From: a virus | Taxonomy: Duplodnaviria > Caudoviricetes | Length of the DNA: 64,000 nucleotides | IMG/VR virus record: IMGVR_UViG_3300028809_000013 | Location: 332 to 64,331 of that record | Direction: 5' to 3' (one strand) | Part shown: positions 7,570 to 60,474 of the stretch, one piece after another | How positions within the stretch are numbered: the stretch's first letter is position 1 | How the letters are laid out: each line of letters begins with the position of its first letter | The notes under the pieces: generated by a model | Seen by the model: the letters and a program-made list of their open reading frames with translations, nothing else | Database searches by the model: none | Told to the model about the DNA's origin: nothing | Made by a program: the position numbers and the translations under genes

Positions 7570-7839
7570 AGCACGACGACGGCAGCGCGGACGGTGCGGA
7601 AGCAGGTGATGGAAGCAATCCGCGAAGCGGGGTTCGGCGGCCGGCGCTTCTTCTATCAGGCGGTTCTCAATCCGACGTGGGCGGATGAGGACGCGGAGGA
7701 CTGCGTGGATATCCGTGCCCTTGACGAGGTCGTTGCCGAGGCCCGGCCGGGCGACGTGGTGGACGTGTACGTCTACACGCGGACGGACGAGGAGTGGGAC
7801 CAGACCCTCGTGGACAACGTCACCGTCAAGGTGATGTAG
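7567..7839 (+). CDS. Hypothetical protein
   Basis: Follows promoter and leader; hairpin at 7849-7870 after the stop. Confidence 0.65.
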   Translation: MSTTTAARTVRKQVMEAIREAGFGGRRFFYQAVLNPTWADEDAEDCVDIRALDEVVAEARPGDVVDVYVYTRTDEEWDQTLVDNVTVKVM

Positions 7840-8196: not shown

Positions 8197-8461
8197 GACG
8201 AGCCGATCCACAGTAGAAGCACCCGAAGCTACAGAGCGAGCCTAGATACTGGAGATACCCGTCTAGTATGAGCGAGCCCGAGCGAAAGGAGTCACCCGCT
8301 GAGAACGAGCGAGCCGTAAGCACCGAGCTATCCGTAATTTGCTAGCGAGTCGCTTTTACCATAGGCATCCGTATACAAAGAACGAGTCGTGCCGCCGAAG
8401 GTAACCTAAGCCTCCAAGCGAGCCGGAGCAGAACAGACGACCTTTGGGTTGGAACGTACAG
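8197..8461 (+). repeat. TIGR-like guide-RNA array A (7 units)
   Basis: Alternating 9-nt repeats ARCGAGYCG and AGNNAYCCG-like, separated by unique 9-11-nt spacers; period 36-38 nt. Confidence 0.85.
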
Positions 8462-8496
8462 CGGGCTACGTAGGGAATCCCTACGTAGCCCGCTGT
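8458..8496. terminator. 19-bp perfect inverted repeat closing array A
   Basis: ACAGCGGGCTACGTAGGGA-A-TCCCTACGTAGCCCGCTGT between convergent units. Confidence 0.7.
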
Positions 8497-10696: not shown

Positions 10697-10768
10697 AGCC
10701 CTTCAGTGGTTGCCGAGCCGGGGCCGTGAAGACCCGTGCACGGGCGGGTTCGATTCCCGCAGGGGCTA
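10697..10768 (+). ncRNA. tRNA-like RNA (non-canonical)
   Basis: 7-bp acceptor stem AGCCCTT/AGGGGCT, perfect T-arm GCGGG-TTCGATT-CCCGC, tRNA-like length; D and anticodon arms poor; no encoded CCA. Confidence 0.55.
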
Positions 10769-16700: not shown

Positions 16701-18013
16701 GATTCATCAACTCCATCATCCAGCATCGCATTAAGGGCCATCCCATGATTCTCGCCTTCGTATACCTTGCCGCCATAACGGATACTGGCGGCACGCACCC
16801 GCTCTCCGCTGCCCGCCGGCGCACGACGCCTCGCCGCGTCTGTCTCCAGTTGACGCAGCCACGTAGGCACCACCTCAGCGCCTTCCTGCGGCCTGTCGAT
16901 GTTCAGATCGGGCGCAAGAAGCCCGCTTTCCCGGCCGGGGCGCGGGCGCACGATCTCGTCCATCCGGTCCGCCGCTACGTCCGCCGTGCCCTCTCCGCGC
17001 CGGACACGCCGCGACGACGGACGGACGAAGAGCTCTTCCGATGCAGTCATGCGGCCACCGCCGGGGCGCAGCAAGCCACCCGCGACACCGCCGGCCAGCG
17101 CGCCGATGGCGAGGTTGGCGCCGCGGCTCTCTCCGTCCTCGTAGTCGTACGCCAGATCGTACGGCAGGCCCTCCGCCACGCCGCGGGCCACGTCCCCTAG
17201 CCGAGTACGTGCGCCGGTGGTCCCGAAGCTCTCCAGCGCCGCACGCATGGCCGTGCCCTCCGGGGCGATCCGCGCGCTGCGGGCCAGCAGGGCGTTTTGC
17301 GCGCCGATGGGCACGGAGGCGCCGAGGATGGCCCCTGCGATACCGGAGGCGCGATCCCCACCCGTTGCAGCCTCCCGGCGGAGCGTTTCGCGTTCACGGA
17401 AATCCTCCGCCGTGGAAACCGGAGACAGCGCCCCCAGCAATTCGTCGCGATACCCCAGCGTGAGCGTCTGCGCGCCGCCAGCCCCGGCGTAGTCCAGCGC
17501 CCGGACCACGGCAGGGCGCTCCTGGAGACGGCGCCGCTCGCGGCTGCGCTCCTCGTCCAGCGCCCGCTGCGTGCGGTTGCGGGTGTCCGGGCCGATGGTC
17601 CCCGTGCGGGAGGGATCGGGGCGGCCCGGAACGCGGGATGGGCGGCGACTCTGCGGCGTACTGGCGGCGTCGGCGGCTACAGGCTGCGCCGTCTCGGACG
17701 CGTCCCGTAGCGCGGCGTAAGGATCGAAGTAGCGGCGCGGAAAGTTGGCAGGAGGAGCCTGCACGCCCGCGGCGCGGAGGGCGGCGCCCTGACGCATGAG
17801 CGGGCTGGAGCCAACGTCCGTGCCGGCGGGCAGGTCTTGGGCCGGTTCCGGCGTGAACGTGTCCTGTAGCCACTGGCGTACGCCGCGCCGCCGCCTGCGC
17901 CTGCGGGGAGGCGTAGTGGCGGTGTCAGGTTGCGGCTGGTTGGCGCCGGCCCGCTCTGCGTCGGCCCGCAGCGAGTCCAGCCAGCCAGTTACCTCGTCCT
18001 CACGCTTCGACAT
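10766..18013 (-). CDS. Giant polyvalent virion/ejection protein with two ADP-ribosyltransferase-like domains
   Basis: 2415 aa; two copies of TP.F.RWFG.SK..D..G.PLVVY(H/K)G...PV.LSI..P...YDG....N...HP.QIKSA.GNSG.FDP.NP.I; also FYSRLE and HW....AHIR..DR...LFMQEAQSDWHQ modules. Confidence 0.8.
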   Translation of the reverse strand: MSKREDEVTGWLDSLRADAERAGANQPQPDTATTPPRRRRRRRGVRQWLQDTFTPEPAQDLPAGTDVGSSPLMRQGAALRAAGVQAPPANFPRRYFDPYAALRDASETAQPVAADAASTPQSRRPSRVPGRPDPSRTGTIGPDTRNRTQRALDEERSRERRRLQERPAVVRALDYAGAGGAQTLTLGYRDELLGALSPVSTAEDFRERETLRREAATGGDRASGIAGAILGASVPIGAQNALLARSARIAPEGTAMRAALESFGTTGARTRLGDVARGVAEGLPYDLAYDYEDGESRGANLAIGALAGGVAGGLLRPGGGRMTASEELFVRPSSRRVRRGEGTADVAADRMDEIVRPRPGRESGLLAPDLNIDRPQEGAEVVPTWLRQLETDAARRRAPAGSGERVRAASIRYGGKVYEGENHGMALNAMLDDGVDESVIDAYEHAGGMPDPSLGIEAGFTSTSGRWLSRAEAASLSGSRKGEADAIREVDPLYGARFEAARRARMEEQWQSYRNSPAYEPGGVAELQYRAWRKARGLPEPEESAASLSNAGNEVDLDAWVRALPESAPVAPDVAPVARSESPATTAAAPVPDVAPAPAGQIDQAAEDAYRARRASINGQVRAGTLSREDADKRLKALGMQRAAERRRETGQLTDRERAAEARREASNYVGKPVVVQTEGGPVSGTVAGNTFGRVRVRMEDGSVISAMPDAVSPAQRLLGNRVGAVGDRAGIDRLAQTDTPEFRRWFGDSKVRDKQGQPLVVYHGTVEDFDTFEAGEFGFHFGDAAAAEMMGKEMPVFLSIRNPLQMPDMGVWTPSRVLGTAQVRAKLPTAEVVEAQRQIDILGKRLRKNLEQDDDQVLQRRAHYEWSRPVRDLLERHGYDGIIYKNEAEGFANSFIAFHPTQIKSATGNSGAFDPSNPNITGAATPDLLNLVARTGTGAVVGGAAGGTLDPENPARGAALGALAGAGLGAASMRGAINADANFAARRRAGMELAEDLRSRPRTEAGFVRTNPDEMATATPATTQRNRTGFPLALGPDRQVDPLRLPDTEALMDAGRVAVRPLQNQYGAVGDLSRLEGQEPPVPIWTGKRRGSDPTENPGVYYHVAPEGYRAGDPLKSFFRLREQGVEPEWKWDFDFADGGYEDGTRIALHDNLPEAADFQKEYGGQLLRVEIPENSGLFGGVNAEGYPYVEGEIPAEFIHPASTASTGAAGDFETSRNASAPSQGEPQTRTPQFNRWFGNSKIVDDSGEPLVVYKGMWPPDQRQEPMSSINRREFGGFPAYNGDEPDVDIAGFFSSSKDVANQFAQGVNSRGGHGPSVYPVYLSIQKPYVIDAKGNYAGEYQFGPEGKPFRDAIRSGNYDGVVIRNTGDEGDVYIPLHPEQIKSAIGNSGNFDPRNPDIAGAADPRLLGAVARTGAGALAGAAIDREDPLRGAAIGAGVGAAGPAIARSVARHAGNRIGAVGDISTLRTSAGAPRFYSRLENAVRSGQNAAPASQWLRYLDGHPAGIAKGEREWTGVDAWLRERGNQKVTRAELGQYLAQNRVRVGEVGYGATRGNRARLKELHDSYSVAVEASKGIEQQLLAALRATSIEPWAEASAISEIRQWGSAAIDASAHFRDVPVQERSAIYRLMDEFKGAESVIQRHDEVLREAQEATKGRYAGYQVAGGEPGTYREVLLTLDNDRLRSAPDDWRMEQDGSLWSVRDANGRRLSANQNREAALREALDKFNAERGNSIYRGPHWDEPNTMAHIRLDDRTLPDGERVLFMQEAQSDWHQTGREHGYTNQPYKVEQNGSQWSVLAPDGSEISAYWTREAAESAAIREVETRGVPNAPFKNTDEWLGLTLKRAVDEAVEGGYDRVAWSTGDQIWKVVSNDPKNLEGMREFYDKIIPRWLAKYGKKLGVEVEPIRLPGMENEMYRTEWVGPELTDNVMRDMAERAEPYYRADILHVMNATANPQQRAHALVHLMETGSDGFRTEMEYLLGSNPVQRVLDEGAGGTNLSIRITPALRETVQRQGQALYSFPGPILDALKTQAGQAAAGAGLGLAMEPDHPLYGALAGSAGALGVRVGYLRTSGRKMRNAIRRGTARVALSQFTDGQLEQLAKRYERLVPDVAAAMRGEVGERAARRTLTPQQIADRDVALLAEGPLKPVRQRVTRTLTAPEQSAITDAYRAGNEHVRRRIIDELEAAADDATPGVERVYSRLIGGLELEGFDPLPSRANPVLDAGRYANLSSFGLDPTGERRLADHVRRIVEAEGLDPKQRVTWEETKQVARELGMQPTDVSALAKSTRGLTAAELLAVRNQVRENVEGIERSSLRLAQMDGLETAEASLERQLLRQGIEQAEAQNTLLLSRFIRERSDAGRNLNALKILANQTMDPVVWRERAAAALKARGLEFQEAVHGARIREIIESCG

Positions 18014-35438: not shown

Positions 35439-36707
35439 TTACGTACGGGTGATCCCCTCGATCACCGCGTGGTTGGCCGGCGCACGCGTCACCATCTCCA
35501 CATGCTCGCACCAGTCGGCCGTGAAGGCGTGCACCCGCCCCTCGCCGGTCGTGACACGGTGCAGGATGTTGCCGTCGTCGTCAATCCAGCCGGAGGTGCC
35601 CATCTGGCGGAAGAAGACATCGTCCATCCGCAGCCAGTACATGCGCTGCGGGGGGCAGTCCTTGTCCTTCACCAGCGGCTTGCCGCCGTACTCGATGGCG
35701 TCCTGCCCCGACTTCAGCTCCATCGGGTTCACCTGCCGGCGCTCGCTCACGAGGTTGTTGACGTGCGTGTCGTGCACGTTCGTGTTCGAGAACGCGACCA
35801 GCCCGCTCTGGTCCGTGGCCTTGCGGAACAGCGCCGAGTTGGTGGCCCGCATCGCCCTCTCCAGCAGGATCGGGTCGCTGTTGTACGGCGCCGCGGTGTA
35901 GTCCACCACCGTGGACTGGAGCACCGCCCGGCCGGTGCGCGACAGGTTGAAGTAGTTGCCCGTGTCCGTGACGAAGCCGGAGACGCCGGTCAGCTCGTTC
36001 CCGTCGTTGCGGTTGGTCGAAGAAGAACCGAGCTGGATCTCCTCGCCGTCCGTGAGCGTGACCGCCGTGTTGACGGTGATGGTGCCGGCGCTTTCGTCCA
36101 CGGCGGTGATGGTGCGGGAGACGGCAGCCGTGGCGAACCACACCTCCATGTTCTCCTTCAGACACATCACCTTCTCCCAGCCCTCCAGGTCCGCCTGCAC
36201 GTAGGTAAGCCCGTAGGGGTCGGAGACGGGGACCGTCGTGGAGGCCGTCACCGCGCCGTCCACCGTGGCGAGGATGGCGTTGCCATCGCCCCAGCTCTGC
36301 CGCTGCTTGGAGAGCCGGTAGCCCTCCTTGGTGTCGTCCAACGCCTGCGACAGCGCGGCCTTGAAGGTGGCCCGGCTCCCCTTGGTGGCGGCGATGGACT
36401 GGCCGGTGATGTAGAACGAGCCGTAGAGGCTCTTCACGTAGCCGGTGATGCGGTCATACCGGCCGAAGCCGGGGTTGGGGAGGGCTCCGTTCTCCGCCCG
36501 CGCTCCGTGACCCTGCGCAGTGGCGGTCTTCAGCGGCTCCACCCAGTTCAGGCCCACATCGGTGGGCTTGGTCTTGATCCGCGACAGCAGCTCCGTGCTC
36601 GTGTTGACGAGGTTGCGGATCTCGTTGACGACGTAGTCCTCCTTCAGGAAGGCGGCGATGGTGCTTGCCGCACCCGCGTCGTCATAGATTACCTGGCGTC
36701 CTGCCAT
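35439..36707 (-). CDS. Major capsid protein
   Basis: 422 aa after the scaffold; LKE.Y...I..LVN, E.G.LP.PG, G.PLV.D.DCP and P.NHAVI.GI patterns of HK97-fold MCPs. Confidence 0.85.
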   Translation of the reverse strand: MAGRQVIYDDAGAASTIAAFLKEDYVVNEIRNLVNTSTELLSRIKTKPTDVGLNWVEPLKTATAQGHGARAENGALPNPGFGRYDRITGYVKSLYGSFYITGQSIAATKGSRATFKAALSQALDDTKEGYRLSKQRQSWGDGNAILATVDGAVTASTTVPVSDPYGLTYVQADLEGWEKVMCLKENMEVWFATAAVSRTITAVDESAGTITVNTAVTLTDGEEIQLGSSSTNRNDGNELTGVSGFVTDTGNYFNLSRTGRAVLQSTVVDYTAAPYNSDPILLERAMRATNSALFRKATDQSGLVAFSNTNVHDTHVNNLVSERRQVNPMELKSGQDAIEYGGKPLVKDKDCPPQRMYWLRMDDVFFRQMGTSGWIDDDGNILHRVTTGEGRVHAFTADWCEHVEMVTRAPANHAVIEGITRT

Positions 36708-36775: not shown

Positions 36776-37909
36776 TCAGTCTCCGAAGAAACGATCGACC
36801 ATGCTGTCGATCACGTCATTCTCGCGCTTCGGGCGCACCCACTCTGCCTTGCGCCCGCCCGGAGCCGCGGTGTTGGGCGGTGTGGTGCGGCGGGCTCCGG
36901 CCATCTTCGCCGTCCTGCGCACCCGTTCCTGCTGGGCCCTGCGGTCCGCCGCCTGCTGGGCCTTGGCGGCGTCCCTGCGCTCCCCGGCCAGCCGCTTGGC
37001 CACCTTGGCGGCATGCGCCCGCACGTCGGCCGCGACCACCTTCGTCCCGGCAGCCGCGGCCCTGCGAAGGAAGTTGTCCACCGAGTCCTGCACGATCTCG
37101 ATGGACTCCGCCTTGCGCACGCCCAGCTTGCCCGCCTCGTCCTGCACCAGCCTGCGCACTGTCTCCGCAACCCGCTGCTCGGATACCCGCTGCTGCGTGG
37201 CCCGCGTCTGCCCCTCACGATGGTTCTGCATGGCGATGGAGCGTTCGCCGTCGAACACCCGGCGCGCCCGCGGATCGTCGGAAAGCTCCTGCACCCGGTC
37301 CAAGGCGGCGGCCAGCAGCTCCGGGTTGCGCAGACCGAGATCCACCAACACTGTTTCGGTGAACAGCTCCGGCTTGGCGTCGGCCACCGTCAGAAGGAAG
37401 TGCTCTCCTCCCGCGGGCGTGGCGAGGTCGGCCATGAACTGCTCGTACTCGGTCTGGAAGGCGCGGGCAGTGGACACCTCGCGCTCCGCCGACTTGCGCA
37501 GTTCCGCCACCTCCTGCGTCTTGCGGGTATAGTCCCGCACCAGACTCTTGTACGCCTTCTCCGCCACCGCCCGCGCCTTGGGGTCGGTGATGGCGTCGAT
37601 TTCCTTGCGGTCGAAGGGGTCGTCCTCCTCATGGCTCGCGTCGTCGCGGTCGCCTTCGGACTCCTCGCTCTCGTCCGCCTCCTCACCCAGCGCGCCGTCG
37701 TCCCCGGTGCCGTCGTCTGCGTCGGACTCCAGATCGCCCAGGCCGTCGCCCGGCGCCTCCAGGTCGTCCGTGTCGCCTTCCACGGTCAGGTCCGCGTCGT
37801 CGTTCAGGATGATGCCCGTCTCGTCGCCCACCGTGTCCGCTTCCTCGGTGCCGCCGAAATGACGGTCGAAGATGTCGTCGGGGATGGACGTGCCCTGCAT
37901 GTCGCTCAT
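36776..37909 (-). CDS. Capsid scaffolding protein
   Basis: Very acidic N-terminus, DYTRKTQE.AE.RK motif, position before the MCP. Confidence 0.8.
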   Translation of the reverse strand: MSDMQGTSIPDDIFDRHFGGTEEADTVGDETGIILNDDADLTVEGDTDDLEAPGDGLGDLESDADDGTGDDGALGEEADESEESEGDRDDASHEEDDPFDRKEIDAITDPKARAVAEKAYKSLVRDYTRKTQEVAELRKSAEREVSTARAFQTEYEQFMADLATPAGGEHFLLTVADAKPELFTETVLVDLGLRNPELLAAALDRVQELSDDPRARRVFDGERSIAMQNHREGQTRATQQRVSEQRVAETVRRLVQDEAGKLGVRKAESIEIVQDSVDNFLRRAAAAGTKVVAADVRAHAAKVAKRLAGERRDAAKAQQAADRRAQQERVRRTAKMAGARRTTPPNTAAPGGRKAEWVRPKRENDVIDSMVDRFFGD

Positions 37910-38030
37910 CTGTGGTGCCTCTGTGCCGGATGATTGTGCCGCAGGGACCAGAGGTGGACCGTGCTGCGGGAACGGGGTGGAAACTGGTGACTGTGGATGC
38001 CTCGTGGGTGAGGATGTACGACAAACTGTT

Positions 38031-38078
38031 TTTGGTCGATACCCTTGCCCTTGACTTACGGCATAGAGGGATTAGATT
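38031..38078 (+). promoter_or_regulatory. TTTGGTCGATA motif plus promoter of array B
   Basis: Motif at 38031-38041; TTGACT(38051)-N16-TAGATT ending 8 nt before the first repeat. Confidence 0.65.
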
Positions 38079-38086
38079 GAGCCACT

Positions 38087-38421
38087 GTCGAGCCGAAAGT
38101 GGAAAGACAACCGAATCATCTGAGCGAGTCAGTGGAGTGGAAGTAACCCGTAGCCAAAGAGCGAGCCGTGAAACGTTAGACACCCGGACTGGAACAGCGA
38201 GCCGTAGGGATTGAGCCACCCGAAGCAACGCAGCGAGTTGAGTAACGGTAGTCACCCGAGTGCACAACAAGCCGTTTGGTAGTGAGACGCCCGAAGGGAG
38301 GAAGCGAGCCTGACGCGATTGAAGTAACCCGAAAGGGTGTAGCAAGCCGTAGCAATCGATTCAACCGCCTGCCGCCAGCGAGCCGAAGCAGTTGAGATCA
38401 CCGGAAACATCCAGCGCCTTT
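38087..38421 (+). repeat. TIGR-like guide-RNA array B (9 units)
   Basis: Example unit AGCGAGCCG-tgaaacgtt-AGACACCCG-gactggaac; spacers 7-11 nt, mostly 9; followed by hairpin 38426-38460. Confidence 0.9.
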
Positions 38422-38430
38422 CTATGGCCG

Positions 38431-38730
38431 TCAGGGACATGTACCCGCGCCCTGACGGCCGGATTCCTGGTCGTCGCGGGCACGCTGGGCGCAAAGCCAC
38501 TGGATCTGCTGTTCCATGTCGGAGAAACGGGCCTCATAGTTCCGGTCCAGCGTGTTCTGCGCATCGAAGGCACGTTCCATATCGGTGCGCAGGCGTTGGG
38601 TGTCGGCCTCGTTCTCGTTGGTGCGATACTCGGTGCGTGCCACCGCCACGAACACACCCATGGCTGGTAGGATGAAGGCGAGCACCCATCGAGGGATGCG
38701 CAGGTCGTTGTTGCTATCGGATTCAGCCAT
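38431..38730 (-). CDS. Membrane-anchored coiled-coil protein (holin/spanin-like)
   Basis: One TM helix, coiled coil, two C-terminal Cys; same architecture as 27137-27550. Confidence 0.6.
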   Translation of the reverse strand: MAESDSNNDLRIPRWVLAFILPAMGVFVAVARTEYRTNENEADTQRLRTDMERAFDAQNTLDRNYEARFSDMEQQIQWLCAQRARDDQESGRQGAGTCP

Positions 38731-38764
38731 GGCCCCGGATCAACCTTCACCGAAGTGTGCCACC

Positions 38765-39115
38765 ATGCCCAAGGTCGTGATCGACGGAGTACAGTACATC
38801 CCCATGCCCGCGCCGCTGGAAGATGCCGACGAACTCATGCGTGCGCTGGAGGTGCGGTTCGACAGTGACGCTGGCGACAATCTCACGGTCCGCGAGTACC
38901 TGCGCATCCTACTGGACACGCTGTGGGTCGAGGAGGAGGGCTTCAGCGGAAAGCGTCCTTTCGGCAACAGTGGATGGAAGTATGAGTTGTACGAACCCTT
39001 GGTCCGGGACGGCTTCCTCCCTGGCGAAGTGGAAGACGGTAGGCATTTCCCGGATAGCTACGAAGACGCAGACCAATACGTCCGCCTGTTGATTCAGGCG
39101 ATGACGCGTCCGTAA
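38765..39115 (+). CDS. Conserved phage hypothetical protein
   Basis: TVREYL..LL.TLW.E.EGFSGKRPFGNSGW motif; stop overlaps the first repeat of array C. Confidence 0.7.
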   Translation: MPKVVIDGVQYIPMPAPLEDADELMRALEVRFDSDAGDNLTVREYLRILLDTLWVEEEGFSGKRPFGNSGWKYELYEPLVRDGFLPGEVEDGRHFPDSYEDADQYVRLLIQAMTRP

Positions 39116-39560
39116 GCCGAAGTATAGGAGCCACCCGTCGTATCGAAGCGAGTCAAAATTTCAGAGACGCCCGTATTGCAGGAACGAGTCTAACGGACAA
39201 AGCCACCCGTACGGGAAGAACGAGCCGCAACGAACGAGTAACCCTTTGGATAAAGAGCGAGCCAGCGTTTTTGAGACACCCGTCATCGACTAGCAAGCCG
39301 TGGTTCACGATACACCCGACGCTACTAGAGCGAGCCGTGCGAGCTGTGAGTAACCCGTGGCAGACTAGCGAGCCGTAGAATGTGAGATAACCGCGCCGCT
39401 TCAAAGCGAGCCGTACATCTTGAATCACCCTGTCTGACCAAAGCGAGCCGTGTCCGGGGAAGCCACCCTTCTGCCCTTGAACGAGCCGGAACTCGCAAGT
39501 CACCCATCCAGCCAGAACGAGCCGTCGAACCCGATACACCCTGCTCCTTGGAGCGCCGCA
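39111..39560 (+). repeat. TIGR-like guide-RNA array C (12 units)
   Basis: Example unit AACGAGCCG-gaactcgca-AGTCACCCA-tccagccag; 24 unique spacers of 9-11 nt. Confidence 0.9.
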
Positions 39561-39562
39561 GC

Positions 39563-39599
39563 AACCAGCCCCGCCTGTACGGTACAGGCGGGGCTGGTT
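39563..39599. terminator. 18-bp perfect inverted repeat closing array C
   Basis: AACCAGCCCCGCCTGTAC-G-GTACAGGCGGGGCTGGTT between the array and the portal stop. Confidence 0.7.
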
Positions 39600-39605
39600 C
39601 TCTCT

Positions 39606-41903
39606 TCAGTTCAACAGCCCGCCTCCCGCAGCATCTTCAAGGCCCTGCTCCATCATGTCCGCCTCTGCCCCCAGCGGGTCCATTGCGGCCCCCATGCCAC
39701 CCATCGGCCCCGCTGCCGGCTCCCCGCCCTCCTGCGGCATCCCACCGGGCGCACCTCCGGCCAGCAACATGGCGTCCTGGACGCGCTGCTGGTCGATGGC
39801 GGCCTTCACCGCAAGGAAGCGTTGCTGCAACACCATCTGCGCTTCTTCCGGCCACTCCTTCCACTCGGCGCCGGCCAGCGTACGGCGATGCTGGCGGTAG
39901 TGCACGGCTAGGTTCTGCCACGGCTGCGGCATGACCAGCTCCGTGGAGTCGTCCATCCCGTCCATGCCACCGAGCAGGCTGATTTGCTCCTCGATCCGCA
40001 TGGCCTCCGCCACGTCGCCGTCTTCCGACTCGTACGCCGCCTCCAGCCCGCCGAGCTGGAGCGCACGGGCAAAGCGGGCCGGGTCGGGACGTCCCGTCTC
40101 CGGGTCGTTGAACAGGACGGGGAAGCGCTGCGCCAGATCCATGATGACCGCCTGCCGTGCAACCTCGCTTCCCGGACGGCTGCTCCCCGCCTGCGGGATG
40201 ACGTCCACCGCGCCCTCCAGGTCGGAGGCGCGGAAGCTCTGCACCATGTAGCGGCGATCCGGCCCCGCGGCGTAGTACAGACGCTCGTCCGTGTAGTTGT
40301 TCTTGATGAGGATGAGCCACGCACCGGCAAGGTCCGCCACCGCCTCCTCCGCGGAGGCAAGGAACGGCCCCAGGTCCGCGTCGTCGGCCTCCTGCAGCTG
40401 CATGATGGCGATGCCGGCCGTCACCCCGCCCGTGGTCCCGCCCTGCGACACCGCCCGCATCCCCGTCACCCGCTCGAAGTCTACCAGGAGCCGTTCCCGT
40501 TCCTGGTACACGGACGCGGGGAGCGCGGGCACCGGCATGGGCTCCGGCTTGTACGGGTAGGTGTACCGCACCACCTCGCCCGGCTCCGTGGTGAAGGTGC
40601 CCTTTTTGACCCCCGCCTGATTGGGCACGGCGTACTTGCCGTTTGCGAACAGCCGGTGGTGCTCCGCGATGCGGGCGGACAGTTCGTTGTACTCCCGGTT
40701 GATCGCGACCGCCGCCTCCAGCTTGCTCATGCCGTGGTAGCGGCCGGGCACGATGATGTCCTGCGTGTGGATCAGGCGGAACAGCCCGTCCGGGAGGTCT
40801 TGTGGCTCCTCCAGCAGCACGTCGCCCACGCTCACCCAATGCCGCCCCTCCGGATAGTCGGCGCACTGCCTCTCGTAGTAGAACTTCACCAGCGCCCGCG
40901 GCAGGCTCTTCTGCCGCTCGTCCCGCGGCGAGACGCCGAACTCGCTGCCGTCGCTCAGACGCCCGTCCAGCATGCCGCTGAGGGTGGAGAGAATCCCCAT
41001 GACCGTGGACAGGTCTTCCGCCTGCACCTTGGCCGCCGCCTCCGGCCAGCGCTTCGCGATCTCGCGCAGGCTCATGGGCTCCGTGACGATGAACCACGTC
41101 ACGTCCTCGTCGCAGGTAGCTTCCGGGTTGACGCGCACCTGAAACGGAGAGTAGACGCGAAAGTCCACCTCGCCCTCCTCCACCACGTGCGCCTTGGCCC
41201 CCGGCCGTGGGCGCCCATCCTCGCCCAGCATGGGTTCGCCCTCCGCGTCGTAGGGCACCGTCAGGATCTCGGTGGCCGGGACCAGCATCCCCGGCTCGTC
41301 CTCGCTCTCCACCAGCAGTGGCGTGACCCCGTCCGCCTCGTAGACCGGGCACTCCATCTCCGCCTCCAGCCGCTTGATGCGGCCGGCACGGGGGTTCCAG
41401 AAGGGAAGCGCGTAACCGTTGCCCGTGAGGATCGTCCAGCCGCAGAAATGACGGTAGCGCCGGGCCGCCTTCAGCTCCGTCCACTTGGCTTCGATCAGGT
41501 CATCCCCGAGCTGCGCCGCCTTCATGTCCTTGGGGTCGGACGACGCCGGCACGACCTGCGTGGCCGGGCGGGTCTTGGTGACCTTGGCCAGATACGTGTT
41601 GTAGAAGGGGAGGCAGAGATTGTAGGTGGGCTTCAGCTTCCAGAGCGGGTCGGTGCGGTCCACGCGAAAGCCGTCCCGTCCCAGCCGGTGCCAGTGCTGC
41701 CCCACCAGGAAAAGCAGATTCTGCTGCCACGCGAGGTGGAGCGGGCGGAGGTACTGCGTCTGCTCGTCCCACAGCGCGGTCAGGTATGCGGCGTAGGAGC
41801 GGCGGGCGTTGTCGTTCCAGCCCGCGGTGCCGGGCAGCACGGTGGGGTACGGAGCCGGGCCGTGGTCGCCTACGGGCGTGGTGAGGTCGTTGTGCTCGTG
41901 CAA
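39606..41903 (-). CDS. Portal protein
   Basis: 765 aa; W..N..F..G.HW, SPF...V.P.A, TAG.AI..LQEAD patterns of P22-like portals; lies between TerL and scaffold. Confidence 0.85.
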   Translation of the reverse strand: MHEHNDLTTPVGDHGPAPYPTVLPGTAGWNDNARRSYAAYLTALWDEQTQYLRPLHLAWQQNLLFLVGQHWHRLGRDGFRVDRTDPLWKLKPTYNLCLPFYNTYLAKVTKTRPATQVVPASSDPKDMKAAQLGDDLIEAKWTELKAARRYRHFCGWTILTGNGYALPFWNPRAGRIKRLEAEMECPVYEADGVTPLLVESEDEPGMLVPATEILTVPYDAEGEPMLGEDGRPRPGAKAHVVEEGEVDFRVYSPFQVRVNPEATCDEDVTWFIVTEPMSLREIAKRWPEAAAKVQAEDLSTVMGILSTLSGMLDGRLSDGSEFGVSPRDERQKSLPRALVKFYYERQCADYPEGRHWVSVGDVLLEEPQDLPDGLFRLIHTQDIIVPGRYHGMSKLEAAVAINREYNELSARIAEHHRLFANGKYAVPNQAGVKKGTFTTEPGEVVRYTYPYKPEPMPVPALPASVYQERERLLVDFERVTGMRAVSQGGTTGGVTAGIAIMQLQEADDADLGPFLASAEEAVADLAGAWLILIKNNYTDERLYYAAGPDRRYMVQSFRASDLEGAVDVIPQAGSSRPGSEVARQAVIMDLAQRFPVLFNDPETGRPDPARFARALQLGGLEAAYESEDGDVAEAMRIEEQISLLGGMDGMDDSTELVMPQPWQNLAVHYRQHRRTLAGAEWKEWPEEAQMVLQQRFLAVKAAIDQQRVQDAMLLAGGAPGGMPQEGGEPAAGPMGGMGAAMDPLGAEADMMEQGLEDAAGGGLLN

Positions 41904-45860: not shown

Positions 45861-45935
45861 CTCGTCGCCTGCCCCGTGCTGTGGGTTGGTTGATCTCACT
45901 ACAACCAATCTATATTCTCACGCATCCGAAGTCAA
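45858..45935 (-). promoter_or_regulatory. Repeated promoter-leader cassette, copy 3
   Basis: TTGACT-N17-TAGATT; 29 nt identical to copy 1. Confidence 0.75.
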
Positions 45936-48715
45936 GAGCCTTCTTCAACTCGCTCCGCGAGTCGCTCCCGGTGCTCCCTGACCCGACGTTCCCGCGCCGT
46001 CTCGCCTCGCCTCTCCTGCGTCACTAGCTCCGGCGGCGCGACGCGGGCGAGGGTCGCATAGCGCTCGCCGTCCAGCATGTGCATACCTCCAGCCGTGTTC
46101 TTGTCCGGCCCCGGTGTGTGCGCTTCGTAGGGTTTGGGCTTCTTCCAGCGCAGGTTCTTCATCTCCCACAGCAGGCGCGAACCAGCCATGAATTCACCCT
46201 CGTCGCTGGCGTCCGCCCCCGGTCGCAGATGCACCCATTCGCTGTACAGGTTGTCAAAGATGTACCAGCGCGGCTCGCCCACGGCGCTGGGCGAGCCGCG
46301 CTCCACCGTCAGCGGCGGCTCCCGCTTGGTGCTGGGGGCCAGCAGGTTTTGCAGCATGCGAATGCCGGCGTCCACCGCCTTCAACTTCTGGTCGAGCTGC
46401 GTAAAGACGAGCCGGGCGCCGATCTCTGCCGCGGCAGCGTTCAACTCGATGCTGTCCTGTAGCGCAGCGGTGTCGATGTAAATGGTGAGCGTGGCGTCCC
46501 GGTCCTCATTCAACCACGGCAGCACGGGTGGATAGAACCGGCTCCGGGTCTTGCCCTCCTCGTCGGTGCTCTCCACCGTACGGCCCCTGGTGAGATCGCG
46601 CCACACCGCGGACACCCGCTGCTCCGCCGTCTCCCCGCTGCCGCTGAAATACTCGTACACCGTGTACACGCGCCCCGTCTCGTCCATCGCCTTGATGACA
46701 AGGGCGAAGAAGTACGCCGAGTCGCAACCGCCCCACACCTCATAGTGTTGCGGCACCTTGAAGGCGGGGATGACGTGCACCGCCGGGTCGAAATCCGCAT
46801 ACACGCCCCCGGTGCGGCGCTTGTAGATGCCGAAGACGCGTACCATCCGCTCCGCCGGGTCTTTGTAGCGGCGGGCGAAGCGGAGTACCTTCTCGCGGTC
46901 CATGTGGGGCACTTTGATGCGACCCACCCCCATGCTGGCGCGATCCCGCTTCTCCAACGCTTCGTCGTACTCCGCGAGCCCGCCTTCGATCACGTACACG
47001 TCCGGGTTGTCCCCGCCCTTGTTGCCCGCCGGCAGGTACAATCCCTCCTCCATCCAGCCCAGCCCGTTGACCGGGGTGACGGTGATGTAAATCTGCCCGC
47101 CCGTGGTCGCCACGCGCGCCGCGGCCTCGTTGAAGTGCTCCTCCGGCACCGGCTCGTCCAGATGGATGTGCCCCACCGCGTCACCCGTCCAGCTCGTTGC
47201 GGCCTGCTCGTACGACACGAACCAGATCCGGCAGACGCCACCGTCCACCCGCCGGATCGTGGCGCACTTGTGCTGCTCGCTCCAGTGCACCAGCAGGCGA
47301 TGCGGGACGAGGGAGAGAAAAATCTTCCGCGTCACCTTCTCGTAGAAAGGGAAATCCGGGAAACCGGACCACAGCGTCTCGATGAGCGGCACCCGCTTGT
47401 ACGGGTGCACACCGTGGGCTCGCCAGATGTTGTCAATATGTGCGATTGTCGTGTTGTGGGTAACAATGCAGTTCTCCACAACATAGGTACGCTCCGGGTG
47501 CGCCACCTCTATGCAGACCTGCTCGGTTTCTCCGGCGGGATCGATGCGAACCAAGATGCGTTCTTTGGTAACGCAAGGGTTTCTCTGGCGCGCCAACTTG
47601 CGGGAAAGCCTGAATAAAGGCACGTCGTGGACGCGTATGTTGACGCGGTACGACTCCCGTCCCAGCCGTTTTTCTCCTTTGTACGTGTACGATGTTCTGC
47701 GTACTCCCATAACCGCAGTACCACCCAACGACTGAGCCAGGAAAACAACCGCATCAGCCAGACACTTTGATGTAGAACTAAACTCAATCTGCCCATTCTT
47801 TAGCGCCGATCCATCCGTGTCCATCAGTCCTTGCAAGAGCGCAAGTCGCTGAGGGGCGTCGTTGTACAAATAGCAGTCGGGGACGTGTTTCTCCCATGAC
47901 CGCTTGCCCATCAACCCCAGCCCCCGCAGGGACGCAGTCAACGGGTTTGAACGAACGAAGTCCCCCTTCGCGTTGCGCGCATACGGGGCCGGTATACTCC
48001 AGTCGCAGTTTGTTCCTTTGACTTTTTGCAAACTGACGCCATCAGGAAGCAACCTGCGCACCTCTTCCAACAATTCATCATCAACGCTGGAAAGCCTAAC
48101 CGCATCTTTGCTGATCCCACCGTCGCCCAACAGCACGCCCATCAGATACGGGTCTACCGGCACGTCGCAAGCGGGCAAGCGCACAGCCCCTACGGCGGGT
48201 ATGCTGAACCTCTGAGGCGGCTTGGGCCGCATGCCGCCGGGGCTACTCAGAATGTCACGCAGCGAGTACACACCCCATTGCATGTAGCGCCGACCAAAGC
48301 TCTGCTTGCCAGTGGCGTTCGGGTTGGCTTTGACAAAGCGAGCCTGCGGGTCTTTGGCCTTCCACAAATGGTCCAAGCCGCAACGGGTAGAGGCGCCATC
48401 GTTGAAAGTAAGCCGGTACACCGGCTTCACACCTTGGGGATAGACCCCTACCACAGGAGTAGGCGTGCCATCTCCAGCTATCACCAAGTCACCCACGCAC
48501 AACTCTCCCATCTCACGCCATCCGCTCGGCGTGAGTACGGGAGTGTCTACCGGCATCTCCTTCCCGTACCGATTTGAGGCGATATTCAGGACAACGGGGT
48601 AGTCCGCAATGCAGTATTCTTCCTGTCCCTCGTGGGGGGTAAACGGAAACTCGGCGGGACGCAGCAAATCCCGCCGAGGAGCCCACGGAGATACCAGATC
48701 GTCAATCGCGCTCAC
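45932..48715 (-). CDS. terL: Terminase large subunit, intein-containing
   Basis: Walker A ASNRYGK/TT split by the intein; Walker B IHLDEP; TVTP..G; nuclease motifs GGCD and H.LD..RY. Confidence 0.9.
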   Translation of the reverse strand: MSAIDDLVSPWAPRRDLLRPAEFPFTPHEGQEEYCIADYPVVLNIASNRYGKEMPVDTPVLTPSGWREMGELCVGDLVIAGDGTPTPVVGVYPQGVKPVYRLTFNDGASTRCGLDHLWKAKDPQARFVKANPNATGKQSFGRRYMQWGVYSLRDILSSPGGMRPKPPQRFSIPAVGAVRLPACDVPVDPYLMGVLLGDGGISKDAVRLSSVDDELLEEVRRLLPDGVSLQKVKGTNCDWSIPAPYARNAKGDFVRSNPLTASLRGLGLMGKRSWEKHVPDCYLYNDAPQRLALLQGLMDTDGSALKNGQIEFSSTSKCLADAVVFLAQSLGGTAVMGVRRTSYTYKGEKRLGRESYRVNIRVHDVPLFRLSRKLARQRNPCVTKERILVRIDPAGETEQVCIEVAHPERTYVVENCIVTHNTTIAHIDNIWRAHGVHPYKRVPLIETLWSGFPDFPFYEKVTRKIFLSLVPHRLLVHWSEQHKCATIRRVDGGVCRIWFVSYEQAATSWTGDAVGHIHLDEPVPEEHFNEAAARVATTGGQIYITVTPVNGLGWMEEGLYLPAGNKGGDNPDVYVIEGGLAEYDEALEKRDRASMGVGRIKVPHMDREKVLRFARRYKDPAERMVRVFGIYKRRTGGVYADFDPAVHVIPAFKVPQHYEVWGGCDSAYFFALVIKAMDETGRVYTVYEYFSGSGETAEQRVSAVWRDLTRGRTVESTDEEGKTRSRFYPPVLPWLNEDRDATLTIYIDTAALQDSIELNAAAAEIGARLVFTQLDQKLKAVDAGIRMLQNLLAPSTKREPPLTVERGSPSAVGEPRWYIFDNLYSEWVHLRPGADASDEGEFMAGSRLLWEMKNLRWKKPKPYEAHTPGPDKNTAGGMHMLDGERYATLARVAPPELVTQERRGETARERRVREHRERLAERVEEGS
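47453..48559 (-). mobile_element. Intein with LAGLIDADG homing endonuclease (369 aa, class-3-like)
   Basis: Block A EMPVDTPVLTPSGW, block B DHLW, motifs YLMGVLLGDG and LLQGLMDTDG, block F VCIEV, block G IVTHN|T; visibly lower GC. Confidence 0.9.
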
Positions 48716-54395: not shown

Positions 54396-54625
54396 GGTTA
54401 CGTTCAAGACGTACGGGTGACTCTACACTCTACCGGCTCGTTCCAAATTCGTCCGGGTTACTCGTCTGCTACGACTCGTTCTTTTGGTCCGGGTTACTCC
54501 GCGCGGCCCGACTCGCTCTTAGCATACGGGTTGCTCTAGTACGGCGGCTCGCTCACACACTTCGGGTGACTATTCAGTTACGACTCGTTCCCGAATTCCG
54601 GGTTACTTGTGCCAAACGGCTCGCT
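54396..54625 (-). repeat. TIGR-like guide-RNA array D (6 units), directly downstream of the tas-like gene
   Basis: Minus strand reads AGCGAGCCG-tttggcaca-AGTAACCCG-gaattcggg-AACGAGTCG-taactgaat-AGTCACCCG-aagtgtgtg...; 7 nt gap after the stop codon. Confidence 0.9.
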
Positions 54626-54632
54626 GTGTGTC

Positions 54633-55913
54633 TCAGTACCTCCCAATCATCTGCCACGGTCCCACGTACGACGCCTCGGAATGGCCCAGCACGGAGATGG
54701 CGTAGGGCTGACCCACCGGCAGGCCCAGCGCTTCCCGCCACACTTGCCAGAGATGCGACAGGAAAAGCTTCTCCGTCTTGCGCAGCGCCGTCAGGTGCTT
54801 GCGCCCGTCCGCCCAGCCCACGCGCTCGCGGTCCAGCTTCGCCCGCTCGGCGCGGTACACCTGCTCGTACTTGCCCCGCGGCACCTTCAGGAAGCCAGTG
54901 CCTACCAGATACATCTGCTTCTTCACGTAGGCGTCGTAGGTGGACTTCTGCCCGCGCGCCGGCTTGGGCTGGGCCGCACGCACACCGTCCTCCGGGCCGG
55001 CCACCTTCACCAGGGCGCCGGTGCACGAGGCGGTGCTTCCGAGCGCCTGATGCTTGCCGGTCACGTTGTAGCCCACCGGCCAGTCGCGCGTCATACCGCA
55101 GGCGGCGCAGGCGTAGCGCTCGCCGGGCACCGTGGCGAGGCCCGCGTACGCCCAAAACGCGGACGCCGTGGTCGCCTTCCTCGGGTCCAGCCGCGCCAGC
55201 AGCTTGCACGCGAGCGTAGGCCCGATCCCCTTCACCTGCGACAGCCACGGCCAGCAAACGTGGTCTTTCAGCGCACGCTCCATCTCCTTGCGAAGCTCCT
55301 GCTCCTCGGACCACGCGCGGTGGTACATGCGGCCCAGGATCGGCACCGGCCCGCTCTCCTCGCCACGGGCGATGGCGCCCAGCATCTCCTCCACACCCGC
55401 GACCTCCTCCGTCCCCTCGCCCCACGTCTCGTCGCGGCCCTGAAGCACGGCGCGAATCTGCTCGCCGCACCCGATACGCTTGCGCTGCGCCTGCTCGTAC
55501 CCGTCCGCGAGGAAACGCAGCATGCGGTCGTTCTCGGACTGCGGGGGCGCCTCGTGGTTGGCCGCCGACAGAACCGTCTGCGTCGCCACAAAGGAGTCCA
55601 GATCGGCTTCATGGCGTCCGACAAGGCCACGCCGTGCCTTCCACTCCTCGTTCTCCTGATGCTCACGCAGTTCCGTCAGCCCCTTCTTGCCGAAGCCGCG
55701 AATCAGCAGCAGCGCTTCGTCCGACAGCCGCGCCGCCGCCGCGGGCGTGGCGAAGCCGTCGCTGCGCAGCGCGTTGGACGTGCGCGCCGACAGATCGGAC
55801 CAATCCTCGTCCCGCCCGGCCACGGCGGCTCCGTGGCGGGAGGAGAAGAACGTCACGTCCGTGCGCTCCCCGCTTGCCAGCTCCTTCAGCGCTTCCCTCT
55901 CGATGGTGCTCAT
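54633..55913 (-). CDS. TIGR-associated (Tas)-like Nop-domain protein with N-terminal RNAP alpha-CTD-like domain
   Basis: IS110/Nop-type core (Q..RI...QIR coil; WLSQVKGIGP.LA..LLA; SAFWAYAGL; H..A.RK..KLFLSHLW..WR...GLP); no RuvC DEDD domain; aa 37-84 resemble alpha-CTD; adjacent array. Confidence 0.85.
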   Translation of the reverse strand: MSTIEREALKELASGERTDVTFFSSRHGAAVAGRDEDWSDLSARTSNALRSDGFATPAAAARLSDEALLLIRGFGKKGLTELREHQENEEWKARRGLVGRHEADLDSFVATQTVLSAANHEAPPQSENDRMLRFLADGYEQAQRKRIGCGEQIRAVLQGRDETWGEGTEEVAGVEEMLGAIARGEESGPVPILGRMYHRAWSEEQELRKEMERALKDHVCWPWLSQVKGIGPTLACKLLARLDPRKATTASAFWAYAGLATVPGERYACAACGMTRDWPVGYNVTGKHQALGSTASCTGALVKVAGPEDGVRAAQPKPARGQKSTYDAYVKKQMYLVGTGFLKVPRGKYEQVYRAERAKLDRERVGWADGRKHLTALRKTEKLFLSHLWQVWREALGLPVGQPYAISVLGHSEASYVGPWQMIGRY

Positions 55914-55967
55914 CTTCGGCTGCCTTGCTTCCGGTTGGTAGTATACAAATTGTACTGCGACGTAATC

Positions 55968-55996
55968 AACTTACATCACGGCATAACTCCGCGCAA
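55968..55996 (-). promoter_or_regulatory. Promoter of the tas-array D unit
   Basis: TTGCGC-N17-TAAGTT. Confidence 0.65.
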
Positions 55997-57813: not shown

Positions 57814-60474
57814 TTATGCCGCACGTGCGGCCATGCGCTCCAACAGCTCCTCCATCATCCCACGTTCGTCGCTCGCCATCTCTCCGTCCGTCGCGGTGGA
57901 CACCTCCCGGCGCCTGCGGTCCAGGATCGCCATGATATCCTCCTCGATGGTGTCCTCCGCCAGCAGATACCAGTGGTTCGCCGGATCGGGCTTGTCGATG
58001 TGCCCAACTCTCATCTCCAACTGGTCCATGTCGTCCGGCGTCCACCCCAGTTCGATGATGGCGGTGTCGTTGGCTGCGGTCAGCGTCAGGCCCATGCCGC
58101 CACTCTGGAAGTTGATGGAGATGAGCGGGCACGCCGGGTCCGCTTTGTACTCCCGGCACGGGAATTCCGCGGCATAATGCAGCTCGTGGGAACGTCCGCA
58201 CGCAGCACAGCGCTGGAACCGCGTCACCGCCTCGTCCTTGCGCCCGGCCGTCACCCCGCCGTGGATGTACGGGGCCTGGAACCGCCGCGCCACTTCCTCC
58301 ACGACCTCCTGATGCCACGCGCCGACGATCAGCTTTTCGCCGCTCTCCTCCATGAAATTGCCGATCCACTCCACCACGCCCGCCATCTTGCCGAACGCGG
58401 CCAATCGCTTCAACGCCCCGATGCGTACCAACCCCTCCGCCCGCTGCGCCCGGTAGGCGGCATCCTGCGCCCTCGCCTTGCGCGCTTCCCGGCGCTGCTC
58501 CGGGCTCATCCCCTCCAGCGACGCGTTGAACTCGCGGTCCTTCAGCGCATGCTCCGCCGCCCAGCCGGCCACGTCACGCTCCGCGCGCTGGTATTCGGCG
58601 CGGTTGTCGATGGTGAAGGGCACGATGTGCCGCTCCACCATGGGAATTTCCGCATACACGTCGCGGCGGCGGCGGCGCACCATGCAGACGCTCCGGAGTC
58701 TCTGGTTCAGCTCCACCATGGCCTCCGGCGGCACCCGCACGCTGCCCATGACGCCGCCAGCATAGCCACAGTAGCGGGTGGCGTAACCGTAGAAGCCACC
58801 CATGTCGTCCAGCCGGTCGATGATCTGCAAAGGCTCGATCAGGTCCGCCGCCTGCTTGCGCATCGGCGTGCCGGACAGGAGAAGCTGCACCATGTCGTGC
58901 ATCACCTCCCGGCAGCGCGTTCGCCAGCCGGCGGCGAGGTGTCGCAGCACCAGCGTGCGCTGCGCCTTCCGCCCCAGCACGTGGCGGTGGAACTCGTCGC
59001 AGACCAGCCCGCGAAACAGCATCTCCGCCAGCGGGCCGTCGCAAGTATCCACGATGCGCTTGCCGCGGTTGTTCACGGTCCAACGCACCCCGGCCCAATC
59101 CATCAGGATGTCGTAATTGATGATGAGGACTTCGGCGCTACGGAGCTGGCGCAGGCACTCCCCGAACCATTTCTCGTGCCGCTCGGCATAGCGCAGCGCC
59201 GGCCCCGTCTCGATCCAGTTGTCCGGCTCGCGCGGCGCCTTGCCGTCCAACACCGCCACGGATCTTCCGAGCAACCAGCGCTCCGCTTCCCGGCGCCATG
59301 CAGACTTCAGGGTGGCCGGCACCACCAGCAGCGCGGGATAGGATTCGGTGTGGCAGAGGGTCGCCAACGCCTGTGCGCTTTTCCCCAAACGCATCTCGTC
59401 CGCAAGGATGATCCGCCGCTGCCGGGACGCGTAGGAGACGCCCACGCGCTGGAAGGGGCGCAGCGTGCCGCCGAGATTGTCCACGTGGAATTCAGTGTCG
59501 GGCAGGCGACTTTCTTCAAGGTTGGCTTCCGCGCGCTGGAGCGCCGACTCCGCCCGCTCCAGCGCGTCGGCCTCCACCTCGAAGTCGTGCTCGGCGGCGA
59601 AGCGCAGCAACTCCGCGCCGGTGAGCTCCGGAACCTCCCACACCTTCTGTGCGTTGACCCAGCGCGCCCCCGGCAACTGCTTTACCGCAGTCACCAGCGC
59701 CGCGCTGTACGGGAATGAGACGCAGAACCGTTCTCCACCCCAAGTCACCCGGCGAGGGTTGGGACGAGGCTGGGCTTCGGTATCCACCTTGGGCTCCTTC
59801 CGCTCCCACGTGGCCCGCGCCGCCGCCACTCGCTCCGGGTCGCTGAGATAGGCGTCCGCCTTGGCCCAGCGCACGCGGGCCTGCCGCGCTAGTTCTTGCT
59901 CTCGGGATACAACAGATTCATCAACTTGTCCGCCTCTTCCACTACGGACTCCAGAATCCCTTCCATGAATCGCACCGGGTCGGTGCGGTCCGCAGTCTTG
60001 AAACGATGTACCGCTTCGCTCTTCGCTCCGACAATGGCGGACTGTATCAATCCCCTCGCCTGCTCCCTGTCCAGCATCGGATTCCTTGGGTTGATGGGAA
60101 CGCAGATCCACGCACTTGCGCGGCAACCAGCATTCGATTGTGGTTTCTGTGGCGACACGATTCCGGATGGCTTCCCGCTCGGCGGGGCTCATCGCGGCGT
60201 AGGTTTCGGCGTGGGGCAGGCCCAACTCTTTGGAACAATCGGTCCCGAATCCCAGCAGGCGAGAGGCGGGGTTATCGATGTCGCGACCGCAGCGCTGGCA
60301 AACCTCACATTCACGCACCAACACGTGCGCGCGAACCTGCACCGCAGCCGGCGTTACGCGGACAACCTCGGCGGCGATCTCGCGGCTGGCGATGCCCTTG
60401 TCCTTGGCCAGCCACGCGGGCAGGCCCAATTCAATGCGATCCCCTACCGCAAACTGCACTTCCGCTGTCGTCAT
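57814..60474 (-). CDS. SNF2-family helicase with HARP-like and N-terminal Zn-finger (DUF6011-like) domains
   Basis: LRPFQ..GV, ILADEMRLGKS, CDEFH, LLSGTP, GLTLT.A, Q.E.R; FPYS..LV..VK.LPG.RW; CQRCGR....P.S...G.G.DC. Confidence 0.9.
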   Translation of the reverse strand: MTTAEVQFAVGDRIELGLPAWLAKDKGIASREIAAEVVRVTPAAVQVRAHVLVRECEVCQRCGRDIDNPASRLLGFGTDCSKELGLPHAETYAAMSPAEREAIRNRVATETTIECWLPRKCVDLRSHQPKESDAGQGAGEGIDTVRHCRSEERSGTSFQDCGPHRPGAIHGRDSGVRSGRGGQVDESVVSREQELARQARVRWAKADAYLSDPERVAAARATWERKEPKVDTEAQPRPNPRRVTWGGERFCVSFPYSAALVTAVKQLPGARWVNAQKVWEVPELTGAELLRFAAEHDFEVEADALERAESALQRAEANLEESRLPDTEFHVDNLGGTLRPFQRVGVSYASRQRRIILADEMRLGKSAQALATLCHTESYPALLVVPATLKSAWRREAERWLLGRSVAVLDGKAPREPDNWIETGPALRYAERHEKWFGECLRQLRSAEVLIINYDILMDWAGVRWTVNNRGKRIVDTCDGPLAEMLFRGLVCDEFHRHVLGRKAQRTLVLRHLAAGWRTRCREVMHDMVQLLLSGTPMRKQAADLIEPLQIIDRLDDMGGFYGYATRYCGYAGGVMGSVRVPPEAMVELNQRLRSVCMVRRRRRDVYAEIPMVERHIVPFTIDNRAEYQRAERDVAGWAAEHALKDREFNASLEGMSPEQRREARKARAQDAAYRAQRAEGLVRIGALKRLAAFGKMAGVVEWIGNFMEESGEKLIVGAWHQEVVEEVARRFQAPYIHGGVTAGRKDEAVTRFQRCAACGRSHELHYAAEFPCREYKADPACPLISINFQSGGMGLTLTAANDTAIIELGWTPDDMDQLEMRVGHIDKPDPANHWYLLAEDTIEEDIMAILDRRRREVSTATDGEMASDERGMMEELLERMAARAA

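Follow-up and report, generated by a model that had tools for sequence, protein, structure and literature searches.

A dual-repeat TIGR array with its own promoter-like site in the head gene module of a soil-metagenome phage that encodes a Tas protein

The stretch of DNA analyzed here (the window) comprises 64,000 nucleotides (nt) of a virus of the class Caudoviricetes (Duplodnaviria), positions 332 to 64,331 of the IMG/VR record IMGVR_UViG_3300028809_000013, and was found in soil metagenomes. Its head genes lie on the minus strand, with the major head protein gene at 35439-36707, the head scaffolding gene at 36776-37909 (phrog_3927, E 6e-6) and the portal gene at 39606-41903 (Pfam P22_portal, E 2e-14; phrog_156). 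An earlier note on this DNA had placed between the portal and scaffolding genes, on the opposite strand, a stand-alone repeat array with its own promoter (TTGACT-N16-TAGATT, with the start almost at the first repeat), nine units, a degenerate AGCGCC repeat and an 11-bp hairpin. All of these elements were located. The promoter-like site occupies 38051-38078 on the plus strand, the nine units and the closing repeat occupy 38087-38418 on the same strand, the AGCGCC (38413-38418) contains the 3'-truncated edge repeat AGCG, and the hairpin spans 38426-38460. We call this element array B.

The units of array B start at 38087, 38123, 38160, 38196, 38232, 38266, 38303, 38341 and 38377 and measure, in that order, 36, 37, 36, 36, 34, 37, 38, 36 and 36 nt, which makes five of the nine exactly 36 nt long. 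Each unit consists of a 9-nt edge repeat, A[G/A]CGAG[C/T]CG, a spacer A of 9-11 nt, a 9-nt loop repeat, AGnMACCCG, and a spacer B of 7-9 nt, so that the two repeats alternate along the array. The array opens on a CGAGCCG core at 38089 and closes on AGCG just before the hairpin, and its region has 55% GC against about 66-68% in the flanks. By the definition of Faure et al. (2025, Science, PMC12045711), array B is thus a dual-repeat TIGR array. [quoted passage not shown] The likeness to the TIGR-TasA arrays described there covers the 9-nt edge and loop repeats, the spacers of about 9 nt, the unit of about 36 nt, the truncated ends, the hairpin and the motifs shared by the two repeats.

The same two repeats build four arrays in the window, with 34 units in total, arrays A, B and C on the plus strand and array D on the minus strand. 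Array A (8197-8456) has seven units followed by a truncated AACG and an 18-bp hairpin (8458-8496, plus strand, z -7.4). Array C (39111-39555) starts 690 nt downstream of array B and has 12 units, a truncated AGCG and a terminator made of a 17-bp hairpin with a U-rich tail (39563-39599, plus strand, z -6.0). Array D (54401-54625) has six units and a truncated AACG, and begins 7 nt past the stop codon of the tas gene. Edge-repeat cores spaced by 34-39 nt form chains of 11, 9, 7 and 6 in the window, whereas chains in 100 first-order Markov simulations of the window were never longer than three. An Rfam search at gathering thresholds gave no family in the window.

All 34 parsed units carry both 9-nt repeats. 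Spacer A has 9 nt in 24 units, 10 nt in six and 11 nt in four; spacer B has 9 nt in 27, and the whole unit measures 36 nt in 18 (range 34-38). The two repeats resemble each other at both ends. Position 1 is A in 31 edge and in all 34 loop repeats, followed by G in 23 and 29, respectively. The C-C-G ending is equally common to both, with C at position 7 in 25 edge and 34 loop repeats, C at position 8 in 33 and 34, and a final G in 27 of each. The spacer bases that adjoin edge and loop are biased alike as well, the last base being G in 21 and 20 of the 34 units and the first being T in 15 and 15. According to the portion of PMC12045711 available, a start motif (box D) and an end motif (box C) are common to both repeats because a symmetric Tas dimer binds both; the boxes described there for TasR arrays read UG...CCA, whereas those of this phage read AG...CCG. 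In arrays A and C, off-consensus loop ends (ACCG, ACCT, CCCT and CCCA) gather in the units farthest from the promoter (8381-8452 and 39367-39551), the off-consensus loops of array B belong to its first and its last two units (the last two at 38341-38412), and the tas-adjacent array D is fully canonical. Two other interpretations of the repeats, a CRISPR-like and a coding one, were dropped: the repeats have 9 nt and are non-palindromic, the region is poorer in GC than its flanks, and array B differs between related phages by three whole units (112 nt), which would break any reading frame.

The earlier note had proposed that the CGAGCCG-type repeat is the edge and the CACCCG-type repeat the loop, and the array termini, the conservation of the repeats and the related phages all support this. 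Arrays A to D close on AACG, AGCG, AGCG and AACG, respectively, which are the opening four bases of the CGAGCCG-type repeat, and each array begins with this same repeat, whole or 5'-truncated. The CGAG centre of the edge repeat is nearly invariant (33, 30, 34 and 34 of the 34 units at its four positions), whereas the centre of the loop repeat is variable and its position 3 can be any base. An invariant CGAG together with a variable loop centre fits a sequence-specific cut in the edge and a passive loop. From these patterns the cut would likely fall at AGCG^AGCCG. The edge and loop pattern is likewise present in two related viral contigs, G001 and G002, whose Tas proteins show 88-89% identity to that of the window.

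A further comparison is offered by a second phage. A loose pattern scan of a viral collection returned at least 119 stretches, among which a periodic-repeat screen flagged only one, L012; another, L044, belongs to the same contig and also carries an array. The other 117 stretches were taken as chance matches. L012 and L044 together represent G003, a phage of 118 kb with terminal repeats and at least six blocks of TIGR units around a Tas-like gene, from which 33 units were parsed; on the linear map one block is some 95 kb away from tas, and a further one lies on the opposite strand near 114 kb. The repeats of G003 begin with C-G, position 1 being C in 28 of 33 edge and 27 of 33 loop repeats, whereas it is A in both repeats of the window. 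Since the first base shifts in both repeats, edge and loop covary as they do in the TIGR family, which is further support for the edge and loop assignment.

Concerning the promoter, TTGACT-16-TAGATT at 38051-38078 was the sole sigma-70-like site on either strand of the 37500-40000 region (shuffle mean 0.5), and it predicts a transcription start at about 38084-38086, some 6-7 nt past the -10 element and only a few bases before the first repeat, in agreement with the start that had been claimed. The whole window was scanned on both strands with a re-implemented sigma-70-like search, which gave 14 sites. Five of them have the -35 hexamer TTGACT, and three of these five are exactly TTGACT...TAGATT, at 38051 (plus), 45935 (minus) and 60552 (minus). 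The aligned TTGACT-type sites share cTTGACTt-N15/16-TA[G/T/C]ATT, usually followed by G, and a gene for an SNF2 helicase (57814-60474) starts about 50 nt downstream of one of them. Since the hexamers of array B match these recurring sites, its promoter is of the phage's own recurring type; together with the retention of the site in G001 and G002, this supports the claim that array B has a promoter of its own. No promoter-like site was found directly upstream of arrays A and C. A TTGACT-17-TATATT at 7492-7520 (plus) could possibly serve array A, which begins about 700 nt further downstream, through a small open reading frame (ORF) that lies between the two. The stretches 7492-7570 (plus) and 45935-45860 (minus) are two promoter-plus-leader copies that share one type of hexamers and in which about 45 nt past the -10 element are nearly identical.

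Downstream of array B, the GC-rich 11-bp hairpin has arms at 38426-38436 and 38450-38460 and a folding energy of -30.6 kcal/mol, with z -3.4 on the plus strand and z -2.8 on the minus strand. It faces a 99-amino acid (aa) gene with a predicted membrane helix that runs on the minus strand (38431-38730) between arrays B and C. As the last codons of this gene fall within the hairpin, the hairpin sits between two convergent units. Relative to its G002 counterpart, the 99-aa gene has 24 synonymous and five non-synonymous codon changes, and third positions account for 25 of the 31 substitutions. This pattern indicates that the gene is under purifying selection. The array RNA itself is predicted to be less structured than 100 of 100 shuffled sequences (z +2.5), as expected for single-stranded guides.

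The tas gene (54633-55913, minus strand) was located by tblastn with the Tas-like ORF that lies beside an array of G003 (match at 54885-55499 on the minus strand, E 1e-13). It encodes a protein of 426 aa with a domain at residues 40-84, a coiled coil and a Nop-type domain, and is preceded by a promoter-like TTGATT-18-TATACT at 55940-55969 (minus). The Pfam Nop model PF01798 gave no matches in the record. Yet a phmmer search against solved structures retrieved 9MTY (TasR) with E 1.3e-17 and TasH chains with E 2.3e-6, and a structure model built from 40 homologues (pLDDT 88.8) gave TasH or TasR as ten of the ten best Foldseek matches in the PDB (E 8e-9 to 1.7e-6, probability 1.00), followed by IS110-family recombinases and then by archaeal Nop5. 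The residues Y404 and H411 align with Y289 and H296 of SpTasH, and each is conserved in at least 90% of the 40 homologues. In SpTasH this pair is catalytic for pre-tigRNA processing, with the cut falling within the edge repeat, according to the parts of PMC13421893 and of the Xu et al. preprint available. By the alignment, the dyad is thus kept in the phage Tas. The phage has, then, a canonical locus of tas plus array (array D) and three remote arrays.

No nuclease domain was found in Tas, the Pfam matches with E of 0.1 or less being RNA_pol_A_CTD, Transposase_20, HHH_5 and KPBB_C, none of which are nuclease families; the KPBB_C match is marginal (E 0.084, below its cut-off). The RNA_pol_A_CTD match scores 26.9 bits against a cut-off of 23.8, and the modeled N-terminal domain superimposes on the RNA polymerase chain in 7vpd with a TM of 0.82 over 56 residues. 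By profile match and predicted fold, the N-terminal domain of Tas resembles the alpha-CTD of RNA polymerase, the C-terminal domain of the enzyme's alpha subunit. Most Tas homologues have 300-340 aa and lack this N-terminal part. It was found in three of the ten homologues scanned (P0004, P0005 and P0006), and only P0004 exceeded the Pfam cut-off. Within the model, a beta-hairpin insertion contains C269, C272, H288 and C297, which are invariant in the 40 homologues; the insertion is probably a zinc-binding insert in the Nop-type domain.

The presence of this protein bears on whether the repeats act as RNA or as DNA. Iterons, or a packaging or partition site bound by a phage protein of the head module, would account for the position of array B beside the portal and scaffolding genes, and ParB-like genes do occur in operons with some tasA genes, as stated in the available portion of PMC12045711. 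However, all four arrays have the same polarity, in that a promoter or a gene stands ahead of each and a hairpin behind it, with truncated repeat halves at their ends, and the phage encodes a cognate Tas that, judged from homology and modeling, is predicted to bind and process RNA. Moreover, no ParB-like family was found among the 29 window ORFs scanned, a subset of all ORFs. We regard repeats serving as DNA sites as extremely improbable.

The two close relatives allowed the arrays to be compared unit by unit. All four arrays are present in G002, and arrays B, C and D in G001, a fragment of 37.5 kb that does not include the region of array A. In both contigs, array B keeps the promoter hexamers and the hairpin stem, but it has six units instead of nine, and four of the nine window units have a counterpart there. 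The shared fraction varies among the arrays: seven of seven units in array A, six of the 11 compared units plus the leading truncated unit in array C, and two of six in array D. Immediately upstream of array C the window carries a 128-aa gene of unknown function (phrog_15618; 38729-39115, plus strand) that runs straight into the array. The relatives lack it and have two extra leading array C units in its place, so that only the 99-aa gene separates B from C in their genomes. The comparison points to either the insertion of a gene at the 5' end of a TIGR array or the loss of one from there.

In spite of these differences, the structural genes beside array B show 100% identity between the window and G002, which runs through the scaffolding gene, from 36700 as far as about 38007. 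Beginning at about 38008 and on through array C (about 39600), G002 is instead identical to G001, whereas the window diverges. This switch of identity at about 38008 indicates that a breakpoint of recombination lies a short way upstream of the promoter of array B, and the block formed by promoter, array B, gene and array C looks, from this comparison, like an exchangeable cassette.

These data also speak to whether array B could be a decaying or silent relic with a coincidental promoter match, array D beside tas being the only one in use. Off-consensus repeats are indeed more frequent in B than in D (loops ending in CCCG in six of nine against six of six units), and the case for expression of array B is drawn from sequence. 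Yet orthologous repeats diverge less than spacers, with changes at 21 of 342 repeat positions against 32 of 357 spacer positions. This count covered the units that could be matched through the likeness of their spacers, 19 out of 33 parsed in the window. The promoter, which is of the phage's recurring type, and the hairpin are kept in the relatives, and unit content differs between phages with fully identical flanks, which indicates active turnover and not decay. A relic is therefore a very unlikely explanation.

Taking the Tas data into account, we consider it highly probable that array B works as a dual-repeat TIGR array and that it and the three other arrays feed a single Tas protein. Several observations weigh against this. 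The loops of units 1, 8 and 9 end in ACCG instead of CCCG, unit 5 has a spacer B of 7 nt, and the edge repeat of unit 2 is AGCGAGTCA; some of these off-consensus units may therefore be inactive. Spacer length ranges from 9 to 11 nt within this one locus, whereas spacer size is conserved within a locus according to the accessible text of PMC12045711. The tas gene is not beside array B but 16.2 kb away. Three DNA runs from soil metagenomes, one of them possibly the source, contained the stretch in whole or in part, and no RNA run was listed with it. Finally, the array B hairpin lacks a U-tract on either strand and the terminator scan of the region called none, for which reasons termination after array B is uncertain.

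Given the missing U-tract and the lack of a visible promoter ahead of array C, arrays B and C may form one transcription unit. Transcription from the promoter at 38051 would then pass through the hairpin, antisense over the 99-aa gene, as far as the strong terminator at 39563-39599, and array B would be the promoter-proximal half. No promoter-like site lies ahead of array C in 37500-40000, and only the hairpin of C, among those that follow A, B and C, has a U-rich tail. In the relatives the 99-aa gene alone intervenes between B and C, and a breakpoint just upstream of the B promoter would suit a cassette of promoter, B, gene and C that moves together. On the other hand, the 11-bp hairpin is conserved and is placed precisely where two convergent units meet, polymerases reading through it would run against a gene that is under purifying selection, array B closes on a truncated edge repeat as a complete array does, and the promoter of array C could be of a type missed by a sigma-70 scan. 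We consider a joint B-C unit possible, though less likely than a separate array B. The description of array B as stand-alone thus holds for its distance of 16 kb from tas; it does not hold in the sense that a matching Tas is encoded in the same phage and that B may be half of a B-C unit.

If array B works as a separate TIGR array, we would propose the following course of events. Driven by the sigma-70-type phage promoter at 38051-38078, transcription would begin a few bases ahead of the first repeat, and the transcript, about 340-380 nt long, would be stopped or slowed at the hairpin at 38426-38460. Tas dimers would bind each unit through the motif present in both repeats, the A-G start resembling box D and the C-C-G end resembling box C, and Y404 and H411 would cut inside each edge repeat, probably at AGCG^AGCCG. 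The expected products would be nine tigRNAs of about 36 nt, each composed of 5'-AGCCG, spacer A, loop, spacer B and AGCG-3'. Guided by its tigRNA, each Tas dimer would then find a DNA target of about 18 bp, with spacer A pairing on one strand and spacer B on the other. As Tas lacks a nuclease domain, DNA binding or transcriptional interference would be expected instead of cleavage.

Target sites of 18-20 bp with up to two mismatches were searched with all guides and both half-site orders, and none were found in the window, G001 or G002; the guides thus do not appear to target the examined part of their own genome or of the relatives. With three mismatches there were two matches in the window, a number equal to that of the swapped-partner control (mean 1.85). 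In about 1 Mb of unrelated viral loci three matches with up to two mismatches were obtained, a count without a control comparison. As to the host, the relatives of the portal protein belong to distant phages of Actinobacteria, and some Tas homologues are labelled as coming from metagenome-assembled genomes of Gemmatimonadota/Longimicrobiales. A Tas pattern search of genome contigs matched 54 stretches, none of which was confirmed, and it yielded no host or prophage.

Isolated (orphan) CRISPR arrays and phage-borne CRISPR mini-arrays provide guides away from the effector genes, from their own promoters and in trans. The parallel with array B is one of analogy only, as their repeat architecture and effector family are unrelated to it. 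Among TIGR systems, those with TasA, in the part of PMC12045711 at hand, are alike in being phage-borne and in having a nuclease-less Nop-domain Tas in the same genome as the arrays. They differ in that here array B lies 16 kb and array A 46 kb from tas, adjacency to tas holding only for array D, in that spacers vary between 9 and 11 nt within a locus, and in that Tas has an N-terminal alpha-CTD-like domain. SpTasH from the Salicola phage CGphi29 (PMC13421893, available in part; PDB 9W03, 9W04 and 21KL) is also phage-borne, with dual-repeat arrays and the aligned Tyr and His on a C-terminal loop. It is the best structural match of the Tas model, at just 16-17% identity in the fold alignment, and unlike the phage Tas, in which none was found, it has an N-terminal HNH nuclease and cleaves DNA. 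TaTasR (PDB 9MTY) is the best sequence match among solved structures and has the same Nop-type RNA-binding core, but carries an N-terminal RuvC nuclease.

Two further genes of the window were noted. An ORF of 927 aa (45932-48715, minus) has LAGLIDADG homing-endonuclease matches and a weak Hint match, which suggests an intein inside a phage gene. A very long ORF of 2415 aa (10766-18013, minus) came from a crude ORF call.

The kind of system described here is known, while its dispersed array layout and the added domain of its effector are unusual. The survey of Faure et al. covered 5 kb on either side of tas (PMC12045711, in the part available), and the arrays in the Xu et al. preprint, likewise available in part, were annotated "surrounding tas loci". 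Guide arrays that lie far outside the 5-kb flanks of the original survey imply that tas-centred surveys may undercount guides. Neither remote arrays, tens of kb from tas and with promoters of their own, nor an alpha-CTD-like N-terminus of Tas are mentioned in the parts of the main text of these two sources that were accessible.

TIGR-Tas systems were described in 2025, and the Discussion of PMC12045711, in the portion available, leaves open their natural targets, their biological role and the way in which arrays gain units. A comparison of natural variants is provided in this respect by the phage and its two close relatives, with structural genes identical to those of G002 flanking arrays B of nine and six units, four of them in common. 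The alpha-CTD-like domain stands where other Tas proteins have a nuclease. Its presence agrees with the repression recently reported for Tas proteins that lack a nuclease, since TasA and nuclease-dead TasR act as repressors in the accessible part of the Xu et al. preprint, and it suggests a contact with the transcription machinery. A more speculative proposal, which we hold to be unlikely as a whole, is that the system serves RNA-guided control of transcription. An alpha-CTD-like, nuclease-less Tas with 34 guides from four arrays would draw on at least three promoter contexts (with tas, alone as in B, and behind small genes as in A and C), so that the guide sets would change in the course of infection and would bind, block or recruit RNA polymerase at sites of the host or of rival phages, and the swapping of the B-C cassette between lineages would re-target the system.

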